A stretch of 64,000 nucleotides of DNA from a virus (IMGVR_UViG_3300032167_002310); one strand, 5' to 3'; shown: positions 19,356 to 51,328, counted from the first letter of the stretch. Numbers and translations: made by a program. Notes: generated by a model from the letters alone, not told the origin.

Positions 19356-19433
19356 TGCACAATTTTCGCTCCAAAACTTTGTGGAATCTGCTAATTGACG
19401 AAATTCCGGCCCGCCGCAGGCGAAAACGGCCGG
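19356..19433. promoter_or_regulatory. dual-box module 1 (N14) plus GC hairpin
   Basis: TGCACAAT 19356, TTTGTGGA 19378, hairpin 19406-19433. Confidence 0.8.
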
Positions 19434-19479
19434 TTTTTGTGCAAAATGACGAAAAAATCGCCCTTTTGGGGCGATTTTT

Positions 19480-19848
19480 CTACTTTTTCGGCTTTCTTTT
19501 CTGCACAAGGGTCAATTCATAGTCATTTTCACCAACTTTGAAGGCGATTTGGCGCTCTTTATTGGTGATTTCGACCATTTCGTAGCCTTTTTCGCTCAAA
19601 AATGCCGAAATTTCTGCAATTATCTGCGATTTTGTCGCATTTTCCTTGCGAACTGGCGCTTTTCGTGGGGTTTTCACAGTTTTTTCGCCCACATTTGCGT
19701 ACTTCTTGGCGGCTTTCTCTTCTTCTTTGGAAAGGTCGAAGGACATTCGCTCGCCCCTGTCGATTGCCTTATCGTCTGCGATGACTTGCAGAGCCTCTTC
19801 TTCGCTGATACCCAAATTTTTCATCAGCTTTGCAACCTGTTCTGTCAT
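19480..19848 (-). CDS. hypothetical protein (paralog of 24089-24469)
   Basis: Shared LGISxEEAxQxxADDxAIDxG and EITNxERQ motifs. Confidence 0.8.
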   Translation of the reverse strand: MTEQVAKLMKNLGISEEEALQVIADDKAIDRGERMSFDLSKEEEKAAKKYANVGEKTVKTPRKAPVRKENATKSQIIAEISAFLSEKGYEMVEITNKERQIAFKVGENDYELTLVQKRKPKK

Positions 19849-19971: not shown

Positions 19972-20331
19972 TTAGGCTACTTTGGAGAAGTAAGCCTTTC
20001 TCTTTTCCTCTGTTCTCTCAACAGAGCCATCAGTTACCAACTGTCTGACAAGGGCAGACACTCTCTGATTGGACAACTCTGCACACGCAGGCACAGACTT
20101 CATCAAATCTGTGATAGTGTACTTCTTGCCGACTTCCATACCTTCAAGGATTTCAGCCTTGATGCCTTCGTTGGCAACCTGTACAGCAGTAGGTTTCTTT
20201 TCAGCAGAGTTTTTCTTTGCGAGCAATTCCAACTCGTGGTCGATGAACGCAATCTCGTCTGCGTTCAAGGCATAGTTTGCCTTAATCTGTTCAAACATTT
20301 CTCTCTTAGTCATCTTCTTAGTATTAGCCAT
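19972..20331 (-). CDS. winged-HTH protein, paralog 1
   Basis: YTITDLMK...LSNQRVSALVRQLV...VERTEEKRKAYF. Confidence 0.75.
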   Translation of the reverse strand: MANTKKMTKREMFEQIKANYALNADEIAFIDHELELLAKKNSAEKKPTAVQVANEGIKAEILEGMEVGKKYTITDLMKSVPACAELSNQRVSALVRQLVTDGSVERTEEKRKAYFSKVA

Positions 20332-20619
20332 AGTATCAATTCCTTTCTGGTTTGTTGGGTTTTCCTTCCCTTTGATGATTTAATTATATCATAGGTTGAG
20401 CGATTTGTCAAGAGGTTTTTTGAAGTTTTTTTATTTTTTTTCTCAACTCTCTGTTGACTTCTCTCTCCCTTTGATGTATTCATTATAGCACATCTTGGGG
20501 GATTTGTCAAGAGGTTTTTTGAAATTTCTTAAAAACTTTTTTTGACCTCTATCAATTCGGCTCTCCCTTACTGACAATAATAGTATACCACAGACCAAGA
20601 GAAAATACAAGTGTCAAAA

Positions 20620-20755
20620 TGCACAAATTTTAGGAAAATTATTTTTTATTTTTTGTGCAACTTTTCTCTTGACAAAATTTGCGGCCGGTGGTATAATGGA
20701 AAATTCCGGTCACGCTGGCCGTGACCGGGCCGGCGCTTTGTGCAAAATGCACAAA
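20620..20755. promoter_or_regulatory. dual-box module 2 (N24) with rightward promoter, hairpin and an extra TTTGTGCA-AAA-TGCACAAA palindrome
   Basis: Boxes 20620 and 20652; TTGACA 20669, TATAAT 20692; 9-bp stem 20706-20728; palindrome 20737-20755. Confidence 0.85.
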
Positions 20756-20832
20756 ACCCCCAGGGGAGCGAATCACCCCAGGGGTCAAGTGAAAATTGAG
20801 AGAGGGGAGGGAGGGGCTTGCGCCCCTTGCCC

Positions 20833-21192
20833 TTAGTCCACCTTGGAGAAGTAAGCCTTGCGCTTCTCCTCAGTGCGCTCCACAGAACCCTCAGTAACCA
20901 GCTGGCGCACCAGTGCGCTCACTCGCTGATTGGAGAGGTCAGCGCACGCATCGACACTCTTCATGAGGTCAGTAATGGTGTACTTCTTGCCACTCTCCAT
21001 GGCTTCGAGGATGTCAGCCTTGATACCCTCATTTGCGACCTGAACCGCAGTCGGCTTCTTCTCTGCGGAGTTCTTCTTTGCCAGAAGCTCCAGCTCATGC
21101 TCAACGAAAGCCTTTTCGTCAGCAGTGAGGTTGTAGTTTGCCATAATCTGGCGGAAGTAGTCAGCCTTAGTCATCTTCTTAACATTTGCCAT
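20833..21192 (-). CDS. winged-HTH protein, paralog 2
   Basis: Highly similar protein to 19972-20331. Confidence 0.75.
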   Translation of the reverse strand: MANVKKMTKADYFRQIMANYNLTADEKAFVEHELELLAKKNSAEKKPTAVQVANEGIKADILEAMESGKKYTITDLMKSVDACADLSNQRVSALVRQLVTEGSVERTEEKRKAYFSKVD

Positions 21193-21319
21193 AGTATCGT
21201 CTCCATTTCTCGCTATTGGTTGCGACCCTTTTTGAAGTTTCGTTCCTCTCTTGGAACATCTTAATTATACCACATGGGGTTTGATTTGTCAAGAGGTTTT
21301 CGAAAAAAATTCGCGACTT

Positions 21320-21512
21320 TTTTTCTTATCTTCGCTACTCGCCCACTTCTCAGCCTTGTTGCTGGCCCAGCCCTAAGTCTACCCTCACCACGCAATCGCT
21401 TTGCCACGCTCTGTGGGGGCTACTGGGATTCGTGTATCCTTTGGGTTTCAGTTCGCTTCGTGTCTGTTTCCACTGTCCTTGGTGGCTTTCGCTGTCAAGG
21501 TTCCCCTCTTGA
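21320..21512 (-). ncRNA. candidate structured ncRNA A
   Basis: Own promoter at 21519-21549; no credible ORF; GNRA-capped mini-hairpins (gcGAAAgc, tgGAAAca) and several stems. Confidence 0.45.
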
Positions 21513-21559
21513 CTGTAATCATTATACCACACTTTGCGGTATTTGTCAAGACCTTTTTT

Positions 21560-21755
21560 CAAGATTCTTGACTTTTTTGTGTGAGGTATTGTATCGCGCA
21601 TAATCCCCTATTACTTCAACCTCTGGGGCACTGGTTCACACTTGTATACCGCAAACGCGAACACCTTGCGGTCAGAAGCAAGAGCCTTGGCTCAAGGGGG
21701 AAGTCTTACATCGCTCTCGTGGGCTTCCCTCTTCGGGTCGCTTCCCTTAACTTCT
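21560..21755 (-). ncRNA. candidate structured ncRNA B
   Basis: Own promoter at 21761-21790; no credible ORF; stems accGCAAggt, gagcCAAGgctc, gggaag/cttccc. Confidence 0.45.
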
Positions 21756-21896
21756 GTATTTATTATAGCACACTCGGCGCTATTTGTCAAGAGGTTTTTT
21801 AACTTTTTTCAAAGTTTTTTTGAGCTCCTCTTGGGTGCTCCCCTCACCTGACATAGATAGTATACCACATCCAGAAGCAGATTGCAATAGACAGAA

Positions 21897-22016
21897 TGCA
21901 CAAATTACAGGATTTTTATTTCTCGATCTTTGTGCACATTTTCTCTTGACAAAAATGCCGGGGTATGGTATAATGGTAAATTCCGCGCGCTACGTTCGTG
22001 CGCGCGGCGCTGAAAT
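21897..22016. promoter_or_regulatory. dual-box module 3 (N24) with rightward promoter and hairpin
   Basis: Boxes 21897 and 21929; TTGACA 21946, TATAAT 21969; stem CCGCGCGC/GCGCGCGG 21983-22007. Confidence 0.85.
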
Positions 22017-22037
22017 CTCAAACAAAAAAGCGAGGGA

Positions 22038-22196
22038 TTAACCCTCGCATTCCTCGTTGCGGTCTTCAATTCGTTCCTTGATTGCCTGGATGGTAGTACC
22101 AATCAACAGACCAAGCATCTGCACACACAGACAGCCAACAACACCAACGAGCACCCAACCGATGTGGTCAGGAATTTGACAAATAAGTTCTAACAT
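22038..22196 (-). CDS. small membrane protein (52 aa)
   Basis: Manual translation MLELICQIPDHIGWVLVGVVGCLCVQMLGLLIG...; promoter and GAGGT RBS. Confidence 0.7.
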   Translation of the reverse strand: MLELICQIPDHIGWVLVGVVGCLCVQMLGLLIGTTIQAIKERIEDRNEECEG

Positions 22197-22253
22197 AGTA
22201 TCAACCTCTTTCCTTAATTTCTGTATTCATTATACCATGGGGGAGGGCTTTTG

Positions 22254-22991
22254 TCAAGCCCTTTCCCCACTATTTTTGAAAACTTTTTTCAAGTCCATTT
22301 CCTTGCGTGTTCTCTGGGGGATTCTCCAACACGCAGGGGAAATTTTAGTTTCAAGTTTTCTGTGCATTGCGTAACACTTTGCGAGAATTTCAACTTCAAT
22401 TCTCACATCCTCAAGTCCTGTGTGGCTTTCCACAAAATCAACTTGCTTTTTCAGAAACTTGTAACAAGCCTCAGCACTTGTCTGAATGTTGTCGCTTTCG
22501 CTAATTAAACCATTCTGTAAAGCAAATTTTACATAGGAAACTTGATTGAGAACCACTTGACAAGCCATGTTCCAAATGCAAATGTAATCAGTTCCCCAAG
22601 GGAAGAACCAACGCCAGCGAGATTGAGAACAATAGCGAATTGTATTATTCAATGCTCTCTTGTCAAAACCCATGTTGTAAGCACCCACCTTGCGAATGGA
22701 ATACTTTTTCATGTCCTCATGGATTTGCTTGCGAATGTTGAAAATGCTTTTCAAAGTGCGAGTGCCATTTTTAATGTCATCCCAATACTGGGGAATCTTT
22801 TCAGCAAAGTAGGCACTTTGCATCAAGTCTTTGTGGTCGAGGAACATTTCAGAAACCACAAAACTTCTTTCAAGGTAAATCTTGCCTTGTCTGTCACAGA
22901 TTGCATAGCCAATGTCATAGCACAAAGGCTGTTCAATGGTGTTTGCTGTTTCAGTGTCGATGATTAAAAATAATTCTTTCTTGCGAGCCAT
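22254..22991 (-). CDS. DEDDh 3'-5' exonuclease (DnaQ-like)
   Basis: ExoI IIDTET, ExoII AYNMGFD, ExoIII ESHTGLED. Confidence 0.85.
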   Translation of the reverse strand: MARKKELFLIIDTETANTIEQPLCYDIGYAICDRQGKIYLERSFVVSEMFLDHKDLMQSAYFAEKIPQYWDDIKNGTRTLKSIFNIRKQIHEDMKKYSIRKVGAYNMGFDKRALNNTIRYCSQSRWRWFFPWGTDYICIWNMACQVVLNQVSYVKFALQNGLISESDNIQTSAEACYKFLKKQVDFVESHTGLEDVRIEVEILAKCYAMHRKLETKISPACWRIPQRTRKEMDLKKVFKNSGERA

Positions 22992-23097
22992 GGGTATCAA
23001 ATCCTTTCGTATCAACTGTAATTATTATAGCACTTTCATTTTGATTTGTCAATAGGTTTTTGAAAAATATTTTGCGCCCGGGCGAAAAGCTGACCCA

Positions 23098-23571
23098 TTA
23101 AAGGGTCTTGCTTTCGCTCACAAAATACTTCACTTCATACTGTGCGAGAATGTCACGCACCTTTGCACTCTCTTTCTGTGTTGCACAGTAGAAATTGAAA
23201 AGGGTATATTTTCCAACATTTTCCACATAGTTGTGGGGAATGTCTTTCAAATCAAAATGTACTGCGTCAGTCCATTCGTGGGGAACAGTTGCTTCAACTT
23301 TCCAAAGTTTGTCCTTGCGTGCCTTTTCTTCGCACCACTTAACAACATACACACCAACAAGGTTGCACAGAGCCACAATGCCAGCCTTTAAGTAAAGGTC
23401 AAGTTCACACATTAAGTAAACAGTGACAATTGTGTAAAGACCAAAAGCAACAGCATTTACGATTGCGGCGACCCCTTTACCGCACTTCACAGTGGCGATA
23501 CTTTTCACTGTCTGAATGATAACATTCAGAATGTTAAGAATGATAAATGTAATAAGTAACTGTGTATTCAT
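23098..23571 (-). CDS. membrane protein, DUF2179/UPF0316-like
   Basis: Three N-terminal hydrophobic helices (NVIIQTVKSI...GxxxxAAIVNA) plus a soluble C-terminal domain. Confidence 0.6.
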   Translation of the reverse strand: MNTQLLITFIILNILNVIIQTVKSIATVKCGKGVAAIVNAVAFGLYTIVTVYLMCELDLYLKAGIVALCNLVGVYVVKWCEEKARKDKLWKVEATVPHEWTDAVHFDLKDIPHNYVENVGKYTLFNFYCATQKESAKVRDILAQYEVKYFVSESKTL

Positions 23572-23614
23572 AGCGTTTACCTCTTTCGTTTCTTTCTGTA
23601 ATTATTATAGCACA

Positions 23615-23860
23615 TCAATGCTCGTTTGTCAATACCTTTTTTTCACTTTTTATCATATTTTTTGTAAAAGCATCGGAGAACTCATCCCCATACTCATCGC
23701 TGACAAGATAGGCGAGGTATTCCATTACAGTGCTCACCCCATACATGAAATGCTCATTGCCATTCTTTGCATCGTACCGACCGCAGAACAGACCGCATTC
23801 TGTCATTCCGTCAACTACCTTTTCGATTACTTTCTTTTCCTCTTGGTTCAGTTCTAACAT
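23615..23860 (-). CDS. hypothetical protein
   Basis: Start moved to MLELNQEE behind AGGAGG RBS and promoter. Confidence 0.7.
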   Translation of the reverse strand: MLELNQEEKKVIEKVVDGMTECGLFCGRYDAKNGNEHFMYGVSTVMEYLAYLVSDEYGDEFSDAFTKNMIKSEKKVLTNEH

Positions 23861-23922
23861 CGTTCTATCCCTCCTGACATTATTAGTATACCACGTTTCG
23901 GGAGATTTTGCAATAGGCAATT

Positions 23923-24086
23923 TGCACAAATTTTCGCCCGCATTTTTGTTGAAATTAACTATTGACAGGAATACCGGCCCGCGCACTTGTGCACGGGCGG
24001 CCATTATACCACAGCCGGCCCGATTTGTCAAGTGGTAAAAATGCACAAAAATTAGGGCGAAAGTTTGTGACTTTCGCCCATTGACA
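23923..24086. promoter_or_regulatory. dual-box modules 4 and 5 (both N14) with intervening hairpin
   Basis: Boxes 23923/23945 and 24042/24064; TTGACA 9 bp right of each right box (23962, 24081); hairpin 23977-23998. Confidence 0.8.
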
Positions 24087-24088
24087 AG

Positions 24089-24469
24089 TTAGGAACGAGG
24101 GGCAGACAGTACCACCTTAAACTTTCGCCCATTGCAGTGGAAAAGCATTTCCCTCTCGGCGTTCGTAACCTCAATTCCCTCAATGCTTTCCAATCCCTCA
24201 AGGGCTTGCTTGATTTCGTCAATCAGCATTGCCTTGTCGTTGTCGGCTTTGCGTTCTCTCTTGGTTGTGGTCTTGGTTGTGGTGGTGGTCTTTGTTCCAA
24301 TGGCTCTTGCCTTTTTGCTTGCCTTTTCTTGCTCGGCACTCAACTCAAAGAGTTTTGCTCCCTTGTCGATTGCTTCATCATCAGCGACCAACTGTTCGGC
24401 TTCCTCTCGGCTGATACCTAACAGACCCATGTGCTTGGCAATCAGTTTTTCTCTCTCGGATGCTGTCAT
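24089..24469 (-). CDS. hypothetical protein (paralog of 19480-19848)
   Basis: Shared motifs; sits downstream of a wHTH paralog as at 19.5-20.3 kb. Confidence 0.8.
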   Translation of the reverse strand: MTASEREKLIAKHMGLLGISREEAEQLVADDEAIDKGAKLFELSAEQEKASKKARAIGTKTTTTTKTTTKRERKADNDKAMLIDEIKQALEGLESIEGIEVTNAEREMLFHCNGRKFKVVLSAPRS

Positions 24470-24557
24470 AGGCAATCCCCCTTTCTGTAATTACATTATA
24501 CCACACATCAAAGGGGTTGTCAAGGGGAAATTTGCATTTCCCCTTGACTTTTTTCCC

Positions 24558-24917
24558 TTAGTCAGCGAGGGAGAAATAAGCCTTACGCTTTTCCTCAGTT
24601 CGCACAACCACGCCATCAGTGACGAGCTGACGAACAAGAGCAGACACACGCTGGTTGCTCAGTTCGGCACAGGCAGGAATGGTCTTCATCAGGTCAGTGA
24701 TGGTGTAGGACTTACCCTGCTCCATACCTGCGACAATGTCGCCCTTAATGCCCTCATTAGCCACCTGCACAGCGGTAGGCTTCTTCTCGGCACTGTTCTT
24801 CTTTGCGAGCAGTTCGAGTTCGTGGTCAATGAACTCAACCTCAGCCTCAGTCAGAGGGTAGGAAGCCTTAATCTGCTCGAACATCTCACGCTTAGTCATC
24901 TTCTTAGTGTTTGCCAT
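24558..24917 (-). CDS. winged-HTH protein, paralog 3
   Basis: MANTKKMTKREMFEQIKA identical to the paralog 1 N-terminus. Confidence 0.75.
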   Translation of the reverse strand: MANTKKMTKREMFEQIKASYPLTEAEVEFIDHELELLAKKNSAEKKPTAVQVANEGIKGDIVAGMEQGKSYTITDLMKTIPACAELSNQRVSALVRQLVTDGVVVRTEEKRKAYFSLAD

Positions 24918-25308
24918 AGTATCAATCTCCAATCTCGTGGTAGGTCACGACCCAAGTTTTTATTCTGTAAGAGGTGTCCCTCTTTACATTCTTATTATAG
25001 CACATTGGGAGTTGTTTGTCAAGAGGTTTTTTCAACTTTTTTTTTATTTTTTTTGTTGACCTCTCAGTAGGTTTTCCCTTACCTTGTATAACTATTATAG
25101 CATACTCTTTAGGATTTGTCAATACCTTTTTCAAAACTTTTTTAGAAATTTTTTGGTAATGGCTTTTTCCTTTTTTCTATAATAATTATAACATAATTTT
25201 TTTATTTTGTCAATAGGTTTTTTCAAAATCTTTTTGATGGGATTTTGTTCTCTCCCTTACTGACAATAATAGTATACCACATCAGCCACCAAAATACAAG
25301 TGGCAAAT

Positions 25309-25419
25309 TGCACAAAATTACAGGAAAATCTTTGTGCATTTTGCCTATTGACAAATTGCTCGAAAAATGTTATAATGGAAGGTTAGGCCAAAACACCGGT
25401 CCGCGCGCACGTGGACCGG
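25309..25419. promoter_or_regulatory. dual-box module 6 (N14) with rightward promoter and hairpin
   Basis: Boxes 25309 and 25331; TTGACA 25348, TATAAT 25371; stem 25396-25419. Confidence 0.85.
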
Positions 25420-25474
25420 CCGATGCATTTTGGATTTTGAAATGGAAAAAGCGAGGGTTTCCCCTCGCTCTTCC

Positions 25475-25627
25475 TTATCGCGTTCTCTGCTTCGTTGTCA
25501 GCGAATAGGCAACCCCATTCTCAAAAATGACTTCGTCCTTTGTGATGGACGCAACCACCATACCTTCGGGGTTGCTCATGTTTGCGCGAATCTCATTCAG
25601 TGCATTTGCTACTTCTCGAATACTCAT
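25475..25627 (-). CDS. small hypothetical protein (50 aa)
   Basis: Manual translation MSIREVANALNEIRANM...; own promoter, AAGGAG RBS and terminator. Confidence 0.7.
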   Translation of the reverse strand: MSIREVANALNEIRANMSNPEGMVVASITKDEVIFENGVAYSLTTKQRTR

Positions 25628-25701
25628 AGTATCATTCTCCTTTTCTTTTGGTTTGTACTTGTATTATAGCATAGGTTTGGGGGTTTGTCAACCCCCATTT
25701 T

Positions 25702-25947
25702 TTACTTTTTTGCGCTTACGCTCTTGGGACTGTCATTGGTCAAGGGCATCTGCGGAGTGGGAGCTTGTGCTTTGGTGATGATTGCATCAACCTGCTCATA
25801 GAGTTTGTAAGCCTTGCTCGCCTTGCGATAGACTTTCTTCAACTCGGAGTAGGTAAGAGCATTGAACTGCTCGTCACTCATTGTGACCCCAACCTTTGCC
25901 AACTTGTTGCGGATAGATTTCAAACTCATTTCGGAAAACATTTTCAT
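25702..25947 (-). CDS. basic hypothetical protein
   Basis: 81 aa with own promoter and GAGGT RBS. Confidence 0.7.
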   Translation of the reverse strand: MKMFSEMSLKSIRNKLAKVGVTMSDEQFNALTYSELKKVYRKASKAYKLYEQVDAIITKAQAPTPQMPLTNDSPKSVSAKK

Positions 25948-26221
25948 AGTAACAACCTCTTTTCTTTATTTTCTATAATTATTATACCACATTTTTATTT
26001 AATTGTCAATAGTCTTTTTCAATTTTCTTGAACTTTTTTCTATTGTACGAGCCTTTGCCCTTTTTGTTCTCGACTACCGACCCACGCTTGCGAAAGTGCA
26101 AATACTGTTGCAGTTCTTCGCCCTCTTTCTTAAAAATGCGATTGTCAATGGTTTTCTTCTTTTTCATTTATCTCACCTCTTGGTATTATTATAGCATACC
26201 TTTGGGGGTTTGTCAACCCCC

Positions 26222-26710
26222 TTAGGCAACTTTTTTCTTTCTGCCACGCTTAGGCACATAGTTTTTGTAGTCCTTGCCACACTTCTGCAAATTGTGGAGA
26301 GTGTCGAAAGTGACAATCTGTGCGCCGTTGAATTTGATTTGATACTCAATGCCGTTCACATTGACATCACCACCAACCCAAAAGCCGTCATTATCCCAAT
26401 CTCTTGCGACCTGACCGAAGTATCTCTGTACCCACATTTCAAAGTTTCTGCCGTTGTTGCCGTTGGTTACTTCGTAGTCGATTTCGATTGCGCCCTTGCG
26501 AATGAGCTGTTCCATGTGCTGATTAGTCAGTCGAAGCTGAAGCTTTTCCTTGCCACCCTTTTTGCTTGCTTCTTTTTCTACTCGAATGAAGCGAGGCATG
26601 ATTTCATCAACGATTGCCATGTAGTTCTTCTTCTTGTAAGTGAAACCGAGGATGTAACCCTGTGCGCCACTAAACTTTCTGTAGTATCTGATTGCGTTTC
26701 CCTTAGTCAT
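26222..26710 (-). CDS. putative PD-(D/E)xK nuclease-fold protein
   Basis: GRNFE...GGDV...YQIK motif spacing; start moved to MTKGNAI. Confidence 0.5.
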   Translation of the reverse strand: MTKGNAIRYYRKFSGAQGYILGFTYKKKNYMAIVDEIMPRFIRVEKEASKKGGKEKLQLRLTNQHMEQLIRKGAIEIDYEVTNGNNGRNFEMWVQRYFGQVARDWDNDGFWVGGDVNVNGIEYQIKFNGAQIVTFDTLHNLQKCGKDYKNYVPKRGRKKKVA

Positions 26711-26803
26711 TGTTCCTGTCTCCTTTTCTGTTCCGTTCTTTGTATCTTTATTATAGCACCGCATTGACCGTTTGTCAAGCACTTTTTTTATTTTTTTTGA
26801 AAA

Positions 26804-26890
26804 AGATGAGGGGCTTTTAGGGGCGTCCCCCAAGGGGTTTGAACCCTTTCTGCTTGAGCGGCTCAGCATTAAACCTCACCCCTCATCTGT
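26804..26890 (-). ncRNA. small RNA containing a tRNA-Glu-like T-arm and 3' acceptor strand
   Basis: Promoter at 26897-26925; 10-bp closing stem AGATGAGGGG/CCCCTCATCT; AAGGG-TTCAAAC-CCCTT-GGGGGAC-G-CC. Confidence 0.55.
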
Positions 26891-26934
26891 AAGTACAGTA
26901 TAACACACTCCCCAATAGAAGTCAATAGTCAAAA

Positions 26935-27046
26935 TGCACAAATTTCAGGAATTTGACCTCTCGCAACTTTGTGCAAATTGCCTATTGACAAAATGCTGAG
27001 GAAGTGTTATAATGGAAATTCGTGCCGCCTGGGTCGTGGGCGGCGC
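26935..27046. promoter_or_regulatory. dual-box module 7 (N25) with rightward promoter and hairpin
   Basis: Boxes 26935 and 26968; TTGACA 26985, TATAAT 27008; stem 27022-27046. Confidence 0.85.
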
Positions 27047-27064
27047 GCCAAAAAGGCGAGAGCG

Positions 27065-27283
27065 TCAAATTGCTCTCGCCCTGATTTGGGTGGGCTTGAT
27101 GTCTGCGTGACCCTTGTAGGCGTAATACTCAACCCATTCATAGGTGTTGCCACAGTGGTCACAGCCACCGACCACGCTCATTGCGATTGTGCCTGTGTCG
27201 AGGTCTTCAACATCGTAGTGTGAGATAGAAATGAGGGAGCCGCCGCAAGTGGGGCAAGTGGGTTCATTCGTGTTAATCATCAT
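27065..27283 (-). CDS. zinc-ribbon protein
   Basis: CPTCG...CDHCG. Confidence 0.75.
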   Translation of the reverse strand: MMINTNEPTCPTCGGSLISISHYDVEDLDTGTIAMSVVGGCDHCGNTYEWVEYYAYKGHADIKPTQIRARAI

Positions 27284-29762: not shown

Positions 29763-29840
29763 TGCACAAATTTTCCACGAGATTTTTGTGCAGATTACCT
29801 CTTGGCAGAAACACCGCGCGCCACAGCCGACAGCGCGCGG
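29763..29840. promoter_or_regulatory. dual-box module 8 (N14) plus hairpin
   Basis: Boxes 29763 and 29785; stem CCGCGCGC/GCGCGCGG 29814-29840. Confidence 0.8.
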
Positions 29841-30489: not shown

Positions 30490-30568
30490 TTTTACCACTT
30501 CTTTCTGTTTCTTTCTGTAATTATTATAGCACAAGGGGTTGAGTTTGTCAACCCCTTTTTGCATTTTT

Positions 30569-30994: not shown

Positions 30995-31082
30995 AGTTAT
31001 CAGTCTCCTTTTGTTTTCCTTTTTTGTATCTTTATTATAACATGGAGGGGGCTTTTTGTCAAGCCCCTTTTTTAATTTTTTT

Positions 31083-31420: not shown

Positions 31421-31508
31421 TACACAAATTTACGCCGATTTTGCAAGCCTTTTTTGTGCAGGTTTTACAATAGCACCAATCAGGCGCGCCAGGACCGTGC
31501 GCGCGCCT
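31421..31508. promoter_or_regulatory. dual-box module 9 (N24, degenerate left box) plus hairpin
   Basis: TACACAAA 31421, TTTGTGCA 31453; stem AGGCGCGC/GCGCGCCT 31482-31508. Confidence 0.75.
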
Positions 31509-31567
31509 ATGGCGGTCTTTCTGTATTAGTGTAGTATTAGTAGTAGTGTGTAGTAGCACACACTGCA

Positions 31568-31858
31568 TTAGTGTGTGCTTACTCCTACTACCTCATCATC
31601 ATAGATGTATCCATCAGTGTGTGCTGTGTACATGTGTACATCTACCACTGTGCCTACGCTTGGTGCTGTGCCCTCTACCTCATAGCACCACACATGTCCT
31701 TGCTTGTCCTCTACCTCTGCAAGCTGTCCTTCTGTGTGTACTACTACGCAGTCCTTGCGTGTGTAGTGTGTCTCTACGTAGCCGCACAGCCCCAGCATGC
31801 CCATGAACACTACTACTACCAACAGTATAGTCATCATCTCTGTTACTCTCTTACTCAT
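31568..31858 (-). CDS. membrane-anchored/secreted small protein
   Basis: N-terminal hydrophobic helix; own promoter and GAGGT RBS. Confidence 0.75.
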   Translation of the reverse strand: MSKRVTEMMTILLVVVVFMGMLGLCGYVETHYTRKDCVVVHTEGQLAEVEDKQGHVWCYEVEGTAPSVGTVVDVHMYTAHTDGYIYDDEVVGVSTH

Positions 31859-32424: not shown

Positions 32425-32500
32425 TGCACAATTGTTGCGCCCTTTATTTGTGCAAGATGTATACCATGCCAACCAGGGCCGCGCCATCCATGCACGGCCC
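32425..32500. promoter_or_regulatory. dual-box module 10 (N14) plus hairpin
   Basis: TGCACAAT 32425, TTTGTGCA 32447; stem GGGCCG/CGGCCC 32476-32500. Confidence 0.8.
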
Positions 32501-32732
32501 AGCGTATGTATTAGTATGTACATCATTGTGTTGTTTATTATTTATTATTATTATCTATTGTTGTATGTATAGATAGATGTGTATGTGTTATGTACTCATT
32601 ACCTCTTGGTCATTGTGTATGTATCTCTTTGTATGTACATGTGCGTAGCTCTGTAGGGCGTAGAGAGGGGCGTACCTCTCTGTCTGTGTGTGTGCCTGTG
32701 CTGTGTATGCCAACATACCCGGGGGGGTGTAT
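32501..32732. other. non-coding low-complexity TG/TA-rich tract ending at ATACCC-G7-TGTAT; candidate physical genome end
   Basis: Dinucleotide bias stops abruptly at about 32720. Confidence 0.45.
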
Positions 32733-34898: not shown

Positions 34899-34976
34899 AT
34901 TATACCAAAAAATTTTTAATTTGTCAACATTCGGTTTCCAGTGCGGGTTGACTTTTCGAAAATTTTCTGGTATAAT
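34899..34976. promoter_or_regulatory. divergent sigmaA promoters (left operon / packaging operon)
   Basis: Minus: TTGACA 34927-34922, N17, TATAAT; plus: TTGACT 34948, N17, TATAAT 34971. Confidence 0.8.
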
Positions 34977-51266: not shown

Positions 51267-51328
51267 ACTTGACAAAAGAAAAATTTTCTGGTATAATATT
51301 TATAAAGAGAGTTAAGGGAGGCTATATT

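Follow-up and report, generated by a model that had tools for sequence, protein, structure and literature searches.

In the window, a 64,000-nucleotide stretch of a 191,974-bp gut phage genome, all genes between 18 and 35 kb lie on the strand opposite to four rightward promoters that the original prediction had singled out. A pattern search for exact TTGACA-N16–18-TATAAT matches found 35 in the window where 0.16 were expected, all 35 with the extended −10 TG; 30 of them fall in the 18–35 kb interval of the minus strand. Exact plus-strand matches are at 20669, 21946, 25348 and 26985, together with an unrelated site at 51269, and the whole genome has only six on that strand. The four promoters lie at the predicted positions, have the full form TTGACA-N17-TGnTATAAT, and are far above chance. 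They had been described as having no ORF downstream, which agrees with the listed plus-strand ORFs: all start 5′ of the predicted transcription starts, so that none is credible. The GC hairpins proposed behind these promoters were recovered, as were five more, at 19406–19433, 23977–23998, 29814–29840, 31482–31508 and 32476–32500, for which the rightward −10 had been noted as missing. The features of the region are as follows.

19406–19433, no strand assigned: hairpin without −10, 6 nt past TTGACG, adjoining the bidirectional terminator 19452–19480
19972–20331, minus: winged-helix gene (119 aa), gene side of cassette 1, behind stacked leftward promoters at 20411, 20510 and about 20580
20620–20659, no strand assigned: putative operator pair of cassette 1, TGCACAAA-N24-TTTGTGCA, the right box ending exactly 9 bp before the rightward −35
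20669–20697, plus: rightward consensus promoter 1, TTGACA-N17-TGgTATAAT, then GGAAAATT
20706–20728, plus: GC hairpin 1, CCGGTCACG / CGTGACCGG, loop CTGGC, 8 nt past the −10
20833–21192, minus: winged-helix paralogue, gene side of cassette 2, behind promoters at 21292, 21549, 21790 and about 21887
21897–21936, no strand assigned: putative operator pair of cassette 2, N24, right box 9 bp from the −35
21946–21974, plus: rightward consensus promoter 2 (exact promoter search)
21983–22007, plus: GC hairpin 2, CCGCGCGC / GCGCGCGG, loop TACGTTCGT, 8 nt past the −10
22030–22048, minus: intrinsic terminator of the convergent leftward gene 22038–22196, strong minus-strand T-run
23977–23998, minus: hairpin without rightward −10, 4 nt past the −10 of the leftward consensus promoter 24031–24003
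24558–24917, minus: third winged-helix paralogue, gene side of cassette 3, behind promoters at 25022, 25122 and 25213
25309–25338, no strand assigned: putative operator pair of cassette 3, N14, right box 9 bp from the −35
25348–25376, plus: rightward consensus promoter 3 (exact promoter search)
25396–25419, plus: GC hairpin 3, 10 bp including one G-U, loop CGCA, an outlier at 19 nt past the −10
25450–25469, plus: terminator hairpin common to the convergent gene 25475–25627, terminator-like on the plus strand also (terminator prediction)
26935–26975, no strand assigned: putative operator pair of cassette 4, N25, right box 9 bp from the −35
26985–27013, plus: rightward consensus promoter 4 (exact promoter search)
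27021–27047, plus: GC hairpin 4, 11 bp with three G-U, loop region TGGGTCGTG, 7 nt past the −10
27055–27080, minus: terminator of the convergent gene 27065–27283, second hairpin of predicted rightward RNA 4
29814–29840, minus: hairpin without −10, loop CACAGCCGACA, more stable on the minus strand, then TGTTTCTG
31482–31508, no strand assigned: hairpin without −10, family motif in the loop CAGGACCGTG
32476–32500, minus: hairpin without −10, more stable on the minus strand (−18.4 vs −14.3 kcal/mol)

The coupling of promoter and hairpin is far above chance: a GC hairpin follows four of the five plus-strand promoters of the window, against 1/30 on the minus strand (Fisher p = 4.7e-4). The stem starts 7–8 nt past the −10 in three of the units. 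A strictly 5′-terminal hairpin is not universal, unit 3 being offset by 19 nt, which runs counter to the model proposed below. The predicted rightward transcripts of the window have folding z-scores of −3.0 to −5.6, that of RNA 4 (about 27020–27090) being −5.55. The G-U pairs of hairpins 3 and 4 are valid in plus-strand RNA only, and these hairpins fold at −18.7 and −19.3 kcal/mol, respectively, as plus RNA, against −15.2 and −13.2 as minus RNA. Hairpin 1 is called terminator-like on the minus strand too, with the tail AATTTTCC. The convergent gene's terminator at 22030–22048 is the second hairpin of predicted RNA 2 (about 21981–22055), and the one at 25450–25469 is likely to be the 3′ end of RNA 3. 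Strong plus-strand terminators are found about 300 nt further on (22239–22267 and 25678–25697), where they enclose the −35 of leftward promoters.

The centre of each cassette is a helically phased pair, TGCACAAA-N14/24/25-TTTGTGCA, with every box 9 bp off a −35. On the gene side of cassette 3, an additional leftward TATACT-type −10 was seen by eye near 25270–25276. Across related units, the first divergent gene belongs to a single winged-helix family (∼120 aa) in 28/74 cases, a count that includes loci fetched independently of that protein. An AlphaFold2 model of this protein (pLDDT 88.6) is similar to DNA binders of the MarR, ArsR, TubR and MecI types. The convergent neighbour, on the other hand, shows no conservation, with 69 units giving 48 clusters; the promoter-hairpin unit travels with the divergent gene, not with the convergent one. 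In three related loci (L045, L024 and L063) a gene on that side is driven by the same box-plus-promoter, and the hairpin is absent. Hairpins are found only at operator-bearing boundaries; the region's remaining promoter boundaries, roughly 20, have none.

The nine hairpins of the window are not one class, and the five without a −10 behave as elements of leftward transcripts. That 5/9 modules keep the hairpin without a −10 is a further observation counter to the model. At 19406, 23977 and 29814 a TTGACA-like hexamer lies 6–7 nt 5′ of the stem, yet no −10 follows, while no recognisable hexamer adjoins the stem at 31482 or 32476. The 23977 hairpin has a T-G wobble on the minus strand that becomes a C-A mismatch on the plus strand, and folds at −16.3 (minus) against −12.8 (plus) kcal/mol. 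The stem core of the 29814 hairpin, CCGCGCGC/GCGCGCGG, recurs with its loop in a related locus (L246), where it is one base pair longer. In copies without a −10 generally, the minus strand folds better and a T-run is more frequent there, with at least 5 T within the first 7 nt in 13/29. These copies look like leftward terminators or leader hairpins.

I then compared 78 non-redundant promoter-hairpin units from 39 related loci. The anatomy of the unit, its conservation, covariation, spacing, loop-motif orientation and linkage to a divergent gene are observed directly in this set. The stem starts 7–8 nt past the −10 in 51/78 units; with transcription predicted to start usually at about the seventh nucleotide past the −10, this leaves 0–2 unpaired 5′ nucleotides. 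The initial transcribed sequence is conserved as GGAAAtT, and the stem is flanked on its 3′ side by CGC or CCA and then an A-run. A second hairpin lies a median of 22 nt further on in 64/78 units, and 39 of these 64 are preceded by an A-run, the mark of a convergent operon's terminator, giving a predicted RNA with a median length of 76 nt. On the plus strand, at least 4 T within the following 8 nt are found for only 16/64 second hairpins; where the RNA ends is therefore uncertain, and it may read through into antisense. The promoter-bearing hairpins were considered as intrinsic terminators themselves, which calls for a U-tract directly behind the GC-rich stem, and this identity was rejected: their minus-strand tail is AATTTCC, and within 15 nt past them on the plus strand a T-run of at least 4 occurs in 8/78, compared with an A-run of at least 4 in 34/78.

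The stems had been said to vary while pairing is kept, and covariation had been named as a check; both hold. The 117 hairpins fall into 84 sequence clusters, and in pairs sharing the loop and most of the stem, compensatory changes are seen between L258 and L259 (G:C to T:A) and between L198 and L242 (A:T to C:G). Selection thus appears to act on stem structure and not on stem sequence. The loop carries a motif of the CGTG type, in promoter orientation in 34/63 loops and reversed in 6/63 (p = 9e-8), and it occurs in only 3/23 copies without a −10 (p = 6e-4). The asymmetry of folding between strands differs in the predicted direction between promoter-bearing and promoterless copies (Mann-Whitney p = 0.001). 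For all promoter-bearing hairpins taken together, the plus-strand folding preference is weak when flanks are left out (32 vs 25, p = 0.08) and is absent with flanks, and internal G-T and A-C counts (3 vs 1) are too few to decide the strand. Almost all stems pair perfectly by Watson-Crick rules, and this would equally suit a constraint on the DNA or on the two strands together.

In viral contigs searched with a 14-mer only, a hairpin follows 7/8 matches that have a −35, against 0/103 without one (p = 2e-10). In prokaryote genomes searched with an 18-mer, all 9 matches in Clostridia MAGs have a TTGACA/TTGACT-type −35, compared with none of 11 chance matches, and all 9 are then followed by GC-rich self-complementary arms (judged by eye, and truncated in one case where the contig stops). 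Among contigs of close relatives, divergence sets in exactly at the hairpin, leaving loose ends at 21963 and 22024, and the same stem arms or stem core turn up in different phages, where the flanks differ. The only RNA libraries that contain the region consist of assembled contigs of 90–95% relatives, from random-PCR metatranscriptomes without strand or end information.

The closest parallel is with the PeSL cassettes of T4-type phages (Arbiol et al. 2010, PMC2839356; Comeau et al. 2014, PMC4122927). Both are a repeated, intergenic sigma-70-type promoter with a GC-rich stem-loop, and both are concentrated in an early region dense in small genes. PeSLs mark module boundaries where relatives differ, and the units described here may do so too. 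However, in PeSLs the promoter and stem-loop are co-directional with the genes and drive the next one, whereas here the hairpin promoter is antisense and geneless; the co-directional pattern is followed in the window only by the promoter at 24031, which is leftward, and by G5/C5 hairpins enclosing −35 boxes. Unlike a PeSL, the unit forms one half of a bidirectional cassette built around a paired operator, and has an oriented loop motif and a fixed 7–8-nt spacing. There is no sequence relationship between the two, and the PeSL hosts are enterobacteria, as opposed to Clostridia-type hosts here. Racr and other solitary repeat units (Camara-Wilpert et al. 2023, PMC10651486) share a non-coding hairpin directly 3′ of a phage promoter, away from cas genes, but have high identity to the host CRISPR repeat, whereas here every copy has a different stem and a repeat-like tail occurs once. 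5′-terminal stem-loop stabilisers are known from the ompA and papA leaders of E. coli, and RppH of B. subtilis requires at least 2 unpaired 5′ nucleotides (reviewed in PMC3997798). The feature in common would be a stable hairpin 0–2 nt from the 5′ end, predicted here from a predicted start; the ompA/papA-type elements stabilise mRNAs, whereas here no coding sequence follows and any stabilisation would be of a non-coding RNA. Winged-helix regulators of the MarR/ArsR type are known in divergent pairs with their target, with operators in the shared intergenic region. The cassette similarly has a winged-helix gene, a divergent unit, and an inverted-repeat pair symmetric to both −35 boxes, here putative operators; in MarR/ArsR-type pairs the divergent target is a gene, while here it would be a hairpin RNA.

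I propose, with a probability of about one half, that the hairpin and its rightward promoter are the non-genic arm of a conserved, bidirectional, operator-controlled early-promoter cassette, predicted to make short RNAs with a 5′ hairpin. The gene arm would drive early genes, most often the winged-helix protein of ∼120 aa, which would be highly expressed. The non-genic arm would be a maximal promoter for a host sigma-A-type factor, with a −35, a 17-bp spacer, a TG-extended −10 and a GG discriminator. I infer from this architecture that the units are transcribed, and where their transcripts start and end: the rightward transcript would begin 0–2 nt from the 7–16-bp GC hairpin, then pass an A-rich linker and reach the convergent operon's terminator hairpin. 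This would yield a short non-coding RNA of roughly 60–130 nt, structurally closed at both ends. Its 5′-terminal hairpin may shield it from decay that needs a free 5′ end; in Firmicutes, RNase J1 can act only once RppH, with its need for 2 or more unpaired 5′ nucleotides, has done so (PMC3997798). A partner may dock at the loop, as its conserved and oriented motif suggests. Since each unit points at the end of the adjacent operon, the cassette is probably also insulated from leftward read-through. Copies that have lost the −10 would keep a leftward role only, as terminator or leader hairpin. The small-RNA battery of the original prediction is thus a reasonable reading, with indirect support for dedicated short rightward units, because of the fixed spacing, the GGAAAtT start, the oriented loop, the compensatory stems and the downstream terminator hairpin; the accompanying suggestion that the hairpins mimic CRISPR repeats found no support in any test (stem diversity, Rfam, tail motif, host MAGs).

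That suggestion is a special case, of the Racr type, of abundant, trans-acting decoy RNAs that would bind and tie up an RNA-binding protein of the host, for instance Cas6 or Cas5d. Phage solitary repeat units often lie directly 3′ of a promoter, and known RNA anti-CRISPRs are recognised through high sequence identity to the host repeat (PMC10651486). The oriented loop would suit a binding partner, and the sequences that had been pointed out as recalling a type I-C tail, TGAAAT at 22011 and TGGATTTTGAAAT at 25431, are present. They are not a family feature, though: TGGATT(0-2)GAAA follows 0/78 related units and TTGAAA 3/78. The I-C-like tail belongs to one unit only. A mimic of one repeat type was rejected on the four different stems of this phage and the cluster diversity in its relatives. 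No hairpin matched the Rfam CRISPR-DR families at gathering score or even at E <= 10, and the five candidate host MAGs, which are incomplete and weakly linked to the phage, have neither an array with the I-C tail (TGGATTGAAAY) nor Cas1. Decoy RNAs as a whole are rather improbable.

A boundary insulator is unlikely, if less so. Here the unit would block transcription between early operons, the opposing maximal promoter parking or firing RNA polymerase against leftward read-through, with the hairpin as back-up leftward terminator and the short rightward RNA as by-product. In its favour, 69/78 units face a convergent ORF ending at most 220 nt away, the neighbour can be any gene, the hairpin lies directly past the convergent operon's terminator, and PeSL stem-loops of T4-type phages function as terminators (PMC2839356); the terminator-like call of hairpin 1 and the minus-strand stability and T-runs of copies without a −10 point the same way. 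However, strong canonical terminators already end the leftward operons, the AATTTCC tail of promoter-bearing copies is a poor U-tract, a roadblock needs neither a promoter-restricted oriented loop motif nor a fixed spacing, and the restriction to operator-bearing boundaries is not expected of it. PeSL stem-loops are also recombination points (PMC2839356), and it is conceivable, though quite improbable, that the hairpin acts as DNA: as a cruciform or single-strand hairpin bound by protein, a hotspot for cassette-shuffling recombination, or a modulator of promoter escape. The near-perfect stems without clear strand bias in promoter-bearing copies, the shared arms in different flanks and the parting of relatives at the hairpin would all fit. 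Against this, the oriented loop motif goes together with the −10, the G-U pairs in hairpins 3 and 4 of the window would turn into C-A mismatches in the opposite arm of a cruciform, and a fixed distance to the transcription start is simpler at the RNA level. Very unlikely is a cis-antisense brake, in which the rightward RNA passes the terminator and silences the convergent gene by collision or by RNase III cleavage of the duplex. Most second hairpins do lack a good plus-strand U-tract, and strong plus-strand terminators come only about 300 nt on; but the many clusters of convergent genes leave no dedicated target, and the unit co-varies with the divergent gene instead. A nut/put-type antitermination signal was also considered and rejected, as no co-oriented genes lie downstream between 18 and 35 kb.

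The preferred reading remains the non-genic arm of a bidirectional cassette, whose predicted 5′-hairpin RNAs may be stabilised by that hairpin and may dock a partner at the loop. The element is conserved in a whole group of uncultured phages of Clostridia, as a control element not described before, and probably makes short, stable non-coding RNAs.

The window corresponds to the reverse strand of positions 65246-129245 in a phage genome of 191,974 bp. Structural genes, including the portal, lie on the + strand from 35 kb, and short early genes are densely arrayed from 18 to 35 kb on the minus strand. At the end of this early array the phage encodes a methylenetetrahydrofolate dehydrogenase/cyclohydrolase of FolD type (PF02882, PF00763; 33475-34332, minus strand). 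An exact search of the window for TTGACA-N16-18-TATAAT returned 35 sites, against 0.16 expected, and all 35 possess the extended -10 TG. Thirty are on the minus strand, at 18-35 kb, and four + strand promoters are located at 20669, 21946, 25348 and 26985; only six consensus promoters are on the + strand in the whole genome. A GC hairpin follows 4 of the 5 + strand promoters in the window, versus 1 of the 30 on the minus strand (p = 4.7e-4). The original prediction, that the four rightward promoters each run into a GC hairpin, is confirmed, and no credible ORF was found after any of them. The boxes in the list below are the inverted pair TGCACAAA/TTTGTGCA, a putative operator, with a spacing of 14 or 24-25 bp.

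Hairpins, box pairs and winged-helix genes of the window
20706-20728, + strand, hairpin after the promoter at 20669 (hairpin 1)
21983-22007, + strand, hairpin after the promoter at 21946 (hairpin 2)
25396-25419, + strand, hairpin after the promoter at 25348 (hairpin 3)
27021-27047, + strand, hairpin after the promoter at 26985 (hairpin 4)
20620-20659, inverted box pair
21897-21936, inverted box pair
25309-25338, inverted box pair
26935-26975, inverted box pair
29763-29792, inverted box pair
19972-20331, leftward, 119-aa winged-helix gene
20833-21192, leftward, 119-aa winged-helix gene
24558-24917, leftward, 119-aa winged-helix gene

From left to right, the module consists of the leftward promoter of early genes, whose -10 is often TATACT; the boxes TGCACAAA and TTTGTGCA, separated by 14, 24 or 25 bp; a gap of exactly 9 bp; the rightward promoter, TTGACA-N17-TGnTATAAT; the sequence GGAAAtT; the hairpin; CGC or CCA with an A-run; and the intrinsic terminator of a convergent leftward operon. 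The box centres are 22 or 32-33 bp apart, that is, two or three helical turns, and in each of the four promoter-bearing cassettes the distance between right box and rightward -35 is exactly 9 bp. Exact box pairs occur only at these five positions in the genome, and many are present in related phages. The four predicted rightward RNAs each comprise two hairpins with an A-rich linker between them, with folding z-scores of -3.0 to -5.6. Five further hairpins that had been proposed to lack a rightward -10 (19406, 23977, 29814, 31482 and 32476) are also real, and the -10 is indeed absent. A TTGACA-like hexamer is found 6-7 nt upstream of those at 19406, 23977 and 29814, but no recognisable hexamer adjoins the stem at 31482 or 32476. 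Directly to the right of the latter two (31510-31600 and 32500-32590) are odd TA/TG-rich low-complexity runs (TAGTGTAGTATTAGTAGTAGTG...).

Viral contigs were scanned for the box pair and for the 14-mer TATAATGGAAATTC, and a search was made with the neighbouring 119-aa protein. This retrieved dozens of promoter-dense contigs from uncultured phages of 130-200 kb, with 409 non-redundant GC hairpins in 62 loci (1.07 Mb) and, using a slightly relaxed promoter pattern, 78 distinct promoter-hairpin units in 39 loci. These 78 units have GGAAAtT as initial transcribed sequence, with stems of 6-16 bp, loops of 5-17 nt and, in 51, a stem that starts 7-8 nt past the -10. In 64, another hairpin lies further downstream (median distance 22 nt), and for 39 of them an A-run before this hairpin identifies it as the convergent operon's terminator. 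The RNAs are predicted to have a median length of 76 nt.

The coupling of promoter and hairpin was also observed in two retrievals that made no use of the hairpin, and is therefore not circular. Matches to the 14-mer in viral contigs are followed by a hairpin in 7 of 8 cases with a properly spaced -35, versus 0 of 103 without (p = 2e-10). An 18-mer gave 20 matches in prokaryote genomes, nine with a TTGACA/TTGACT-type -35 and 11 occurring by chance; GC-rich self-complementary arms, read by eye, follow 9/9 of the former (one cut by a contig end) and 0/11 of the latter. All nine -35-bearing matches are from Clostridia-class MAGs.

The stems vary while pairing is kept, as originally predicted. Clustering by sequence splits the 117 hairpins linked to a promoter or -35 into 84 groups, 66 with a single member, and compensatory changes are seen between hairpins that share a loop and most of the stem: a G:C to T:A change separates two related loci, L258 (GCGGCCCGCG) and L259 (CTGCCCGCG), both with the loop tcgactgtg, and an A:T to C:G change separates L198 and L242. 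It is thus the structure of these hairpins, rather than their sequence, that is conserved. The loop consensus is near yGGRyCGTG, and the type TGGRYCGTG occurs on at least five different stems, including hairpin 4 of the window and those of L235, L241, L246 and L262.

A loop motif was defined as CGTG, CCGT, ACGT, TCGT, ACCAT or CTGTG at the 3' side of the loop. Of 63 promoter-bearing hairpins, 34 have it in the promoter orientation, against 6 in the reverse reading (p = 9e-8); among 23 hairpins lacking a -10, just 3 have it (p = 6e-4), which ties the motif to an intact rightward promoter. The asymmetry in folding energy between strands also differs between the two groups (Mann-Whitney p = 0.001). 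In hairpins without a -10 the minus-strand RNA is the more stable in 17-23 of 29, and a T-run is present on the minus strand in 13 of 29, more commonly than in promoter-bearing hairpins; in the window, folding favours the minus strand at 23977, 29814 and 32476. Promoter-bearing hairpins lean weakly to the + strand (32 vs 25, p = 0.08), a bias that is absent with flanks. G-U pairing valid only in the + RNA is found in window hairpins 3 (-18.7 kcal/mol on the + strand vs -15.2 on the minus) and 4 (-19.3 vs -13.2 kcal/mol). I propose, with moderate confidence, that there are two classes, with promoter-coupled hairpins acting with the rightward transcript, and promoter-less ones acting on leftward transcripts as terminators or leader hairpins; an example of the latter is the hairpin at 23977, located 4 nt past the -10 of the leftward promoter 24031.

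Since nearly all stems are perfectly Watson-Crick paired, the hairpins may also have a role at the level of DNA. Counts of G-T versus A-C wobbles in stems comprise too few events to be informative, and terminator controls are likewise without signal. Matches in sequencing runs consist of Logan contigs from relatives at 90-95% identity (random-PCR metatranscriptomes, and one run labelled "transcriptomic other"), which carry no strand, start or end information; some of these span the promoter itself, and they are uninformative as to expression.

The gene convergent to the unit is not conserved (48 protein clusters for 69 units), but in 28 of 74 units the first divergent gene comes from a single family, some of them in loci retrieved without that protein. 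This family is that of the 119-aa protein, three copies of which are present in the window; conversely, in 19 of the 28 loci fetched with the protein, an antisense hairpin promoter is found 267-760 nt upstream. An AlphaFold2 model of the protein is confident (pLDDT 88.6), with weak, consistent Foldseek matches to dimeric winged-helix regulators such as MarR, ArsR/SmtB, TubR and MecI; winged-helix matches in Pfam are sub-threshold. In three relatives (L045, L024 and L063) a real gene, driven by the same promoter, is present at the hairpin side of the boxes and the hairpin is absent, which suggests that the hairpin unit forms one of the two arms of an operator-bearing, bidirectional cassette. 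Judged by its layout, this cassette is organised as a regulator and a divergent target, the target here being the predicted hairpin RNA. Before each paralogue in the window are three or four stacked, perfect leftward promoters, 100-250 nt apart (20383-20620, 21264-21890 and 24994-25300); the intervening sequence is non-coding, has a purine-rich transcribed strand, and may represent leaders or small leftward RNAs.

No cultured or named relative was found by DNA match among 50,697 phage records, and the winged-helix protein has a single match in the phage collection, in a faecal contig that lacks annotation. Among named phages the nearest is phAss-1 of the human gut, whose portal is 38% identical. 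Its whole record (OQ749652) possesses 23 consensus promoters, all on one strand with 0 antisense, most of which have the common spacer TTGACAyAAAAAAATTTTTrTGnTATAAT. Two promoters of the window have this type of spacer (34899-34927, minus strand, and 51269-51297, + strand), which may mark a separate, later promoter class. The module is also present in MAG contigs binned as Clostridia (L270, L273, L274, L276, L278, L281, L282, L285 and L288), from Acutalibacteraceae, Ruminococcaceae and Eubacteriales bins. The majority of these contigs are short and densely packed with promoters, and are probably phage DNA; these matches hint at Oscillospirales-type hosts, short of proof.

What, then, would such hairpins do? 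The original prediction of a battery of small RNAs holds in part, as short RNA units are plausible, but its special case, mimicry of CRISPR repeats, is unsupported. RNA anti-CRISPRs (Racrs) are defined by high identity to the host repeat (PMC10651486), and here the stems all differ. None of the Rfam CRISPR-DR families matched even at E <= 10, and a permissive Rfam threshold yielded only chance-level matches. The tail resembling that of type I-C repeats was found after 0 of the 78 other units, and TTGAAA after 3. Neither an I-C-tail array nor Cas1 was found in five module-bearing Clostridia MAGs, which are incomplete and weakly linked as hosts; TGGATTGAAAY occurs in them only as single matches on separate contigs, the eight that were read lying in non-repeat, coding-like sequence. 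A GC hairpin downstream of a promoter does not by itself justify calling an RNA anti-CRISPR. Three other candidates were set aside: a virion RNA polymerase with N4-type hairpin promoters, as the 3085-aa ORF of the + strand structural region is a tape-measure or minor tail protein (PF10145) and promoters of host type abound; antitermination of the Q, nut or put kind, as there are no co-oriented genes downstream; and CsrA-type GGA loops, as GGA is present in part of the loops only.

The closest described system is the promoter-early stem-loop (PeSL) cassette of T4-type phages (PMC2839356), which has the same kind of parts and is similarly placed at module boundaries. It differs in orientation and lineage, and has neither operator nor loop motif. 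Separate G-run/C-run hairpins, with a T-run on the + strand, are found at leftward promoters of the window (22239-22267, 24519-24548, 25678-25697, 30533-30557 and 31044-31071). Four have the promoter -35 (TGTCAA) in the loop, while at 24519-24548 GTCAA is within the stem arms. These resemble composites of promoter and terminator of the PeSL type, which would halt antisense (rightward) transcription.

Host sigma-A polymerase would be expected to start about 7 nt past the -10, so that the RNA of a unit would begin 0-2 nt before the stem. RppH needs two or more nucleotides to be unpaired (PMC3997798); such a 5' end would be a poor substrate for it, and hence for 5'-end-dependent decay. The 3' end would lie at the shared terminator, or ~300 nt beyond, at + strand terminators around the leftward-promoter -35 (22239-22267 and 25678-25697). 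The predicted product is an abundant RNA closed at both ends, its operator common with the winged-helix gene. Beyond the anatomy of the unit, its conservation, covariation, spacing, loop orientation and linkage, all of which are observed, the purpose of this RNA may be docking of a partner by the loop, insulation of the cassette against read-through, or both. A more specific reading, which I consider improbable at roughly one chance in seven, is that each unit is a gene for a phage small RNA of a new, regulator-coupled class: a 5'-triphosphate hairpin RNA that a maximal promoter, controlled by a winged-helix/operator switch, produces in very large amounts, with a conserved loop that docks a specific phage or host protein and a hypervariable stem that hinders recombination between copies. 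By docking, the loop would, for example, sequester a defence sensor or a host factor that binds RNA.

In a large group of uncultured gut and rumen phages, of 130-200 kb, that appear to infect Clostridia, few non-coding features are more strongly conserved than these units, each of which spends a perfect promoter on something other than a gene. They provide a clear annotation marker for the early-region modules of these phages and, on either reading, a compact part for synthetic biology in Firmicutes, combining bidirectional promoter, operator and 5' hairpin. If the units act as insulators, they illustrate how transcription units are separated in a phage that packs ~30 consensus promoters into 17 kb; if the RNAs are real, they would constitute a family of early phage small RNAs that is so far undescribed, unusual in its closed-end design and equipped with a regulator of its own.
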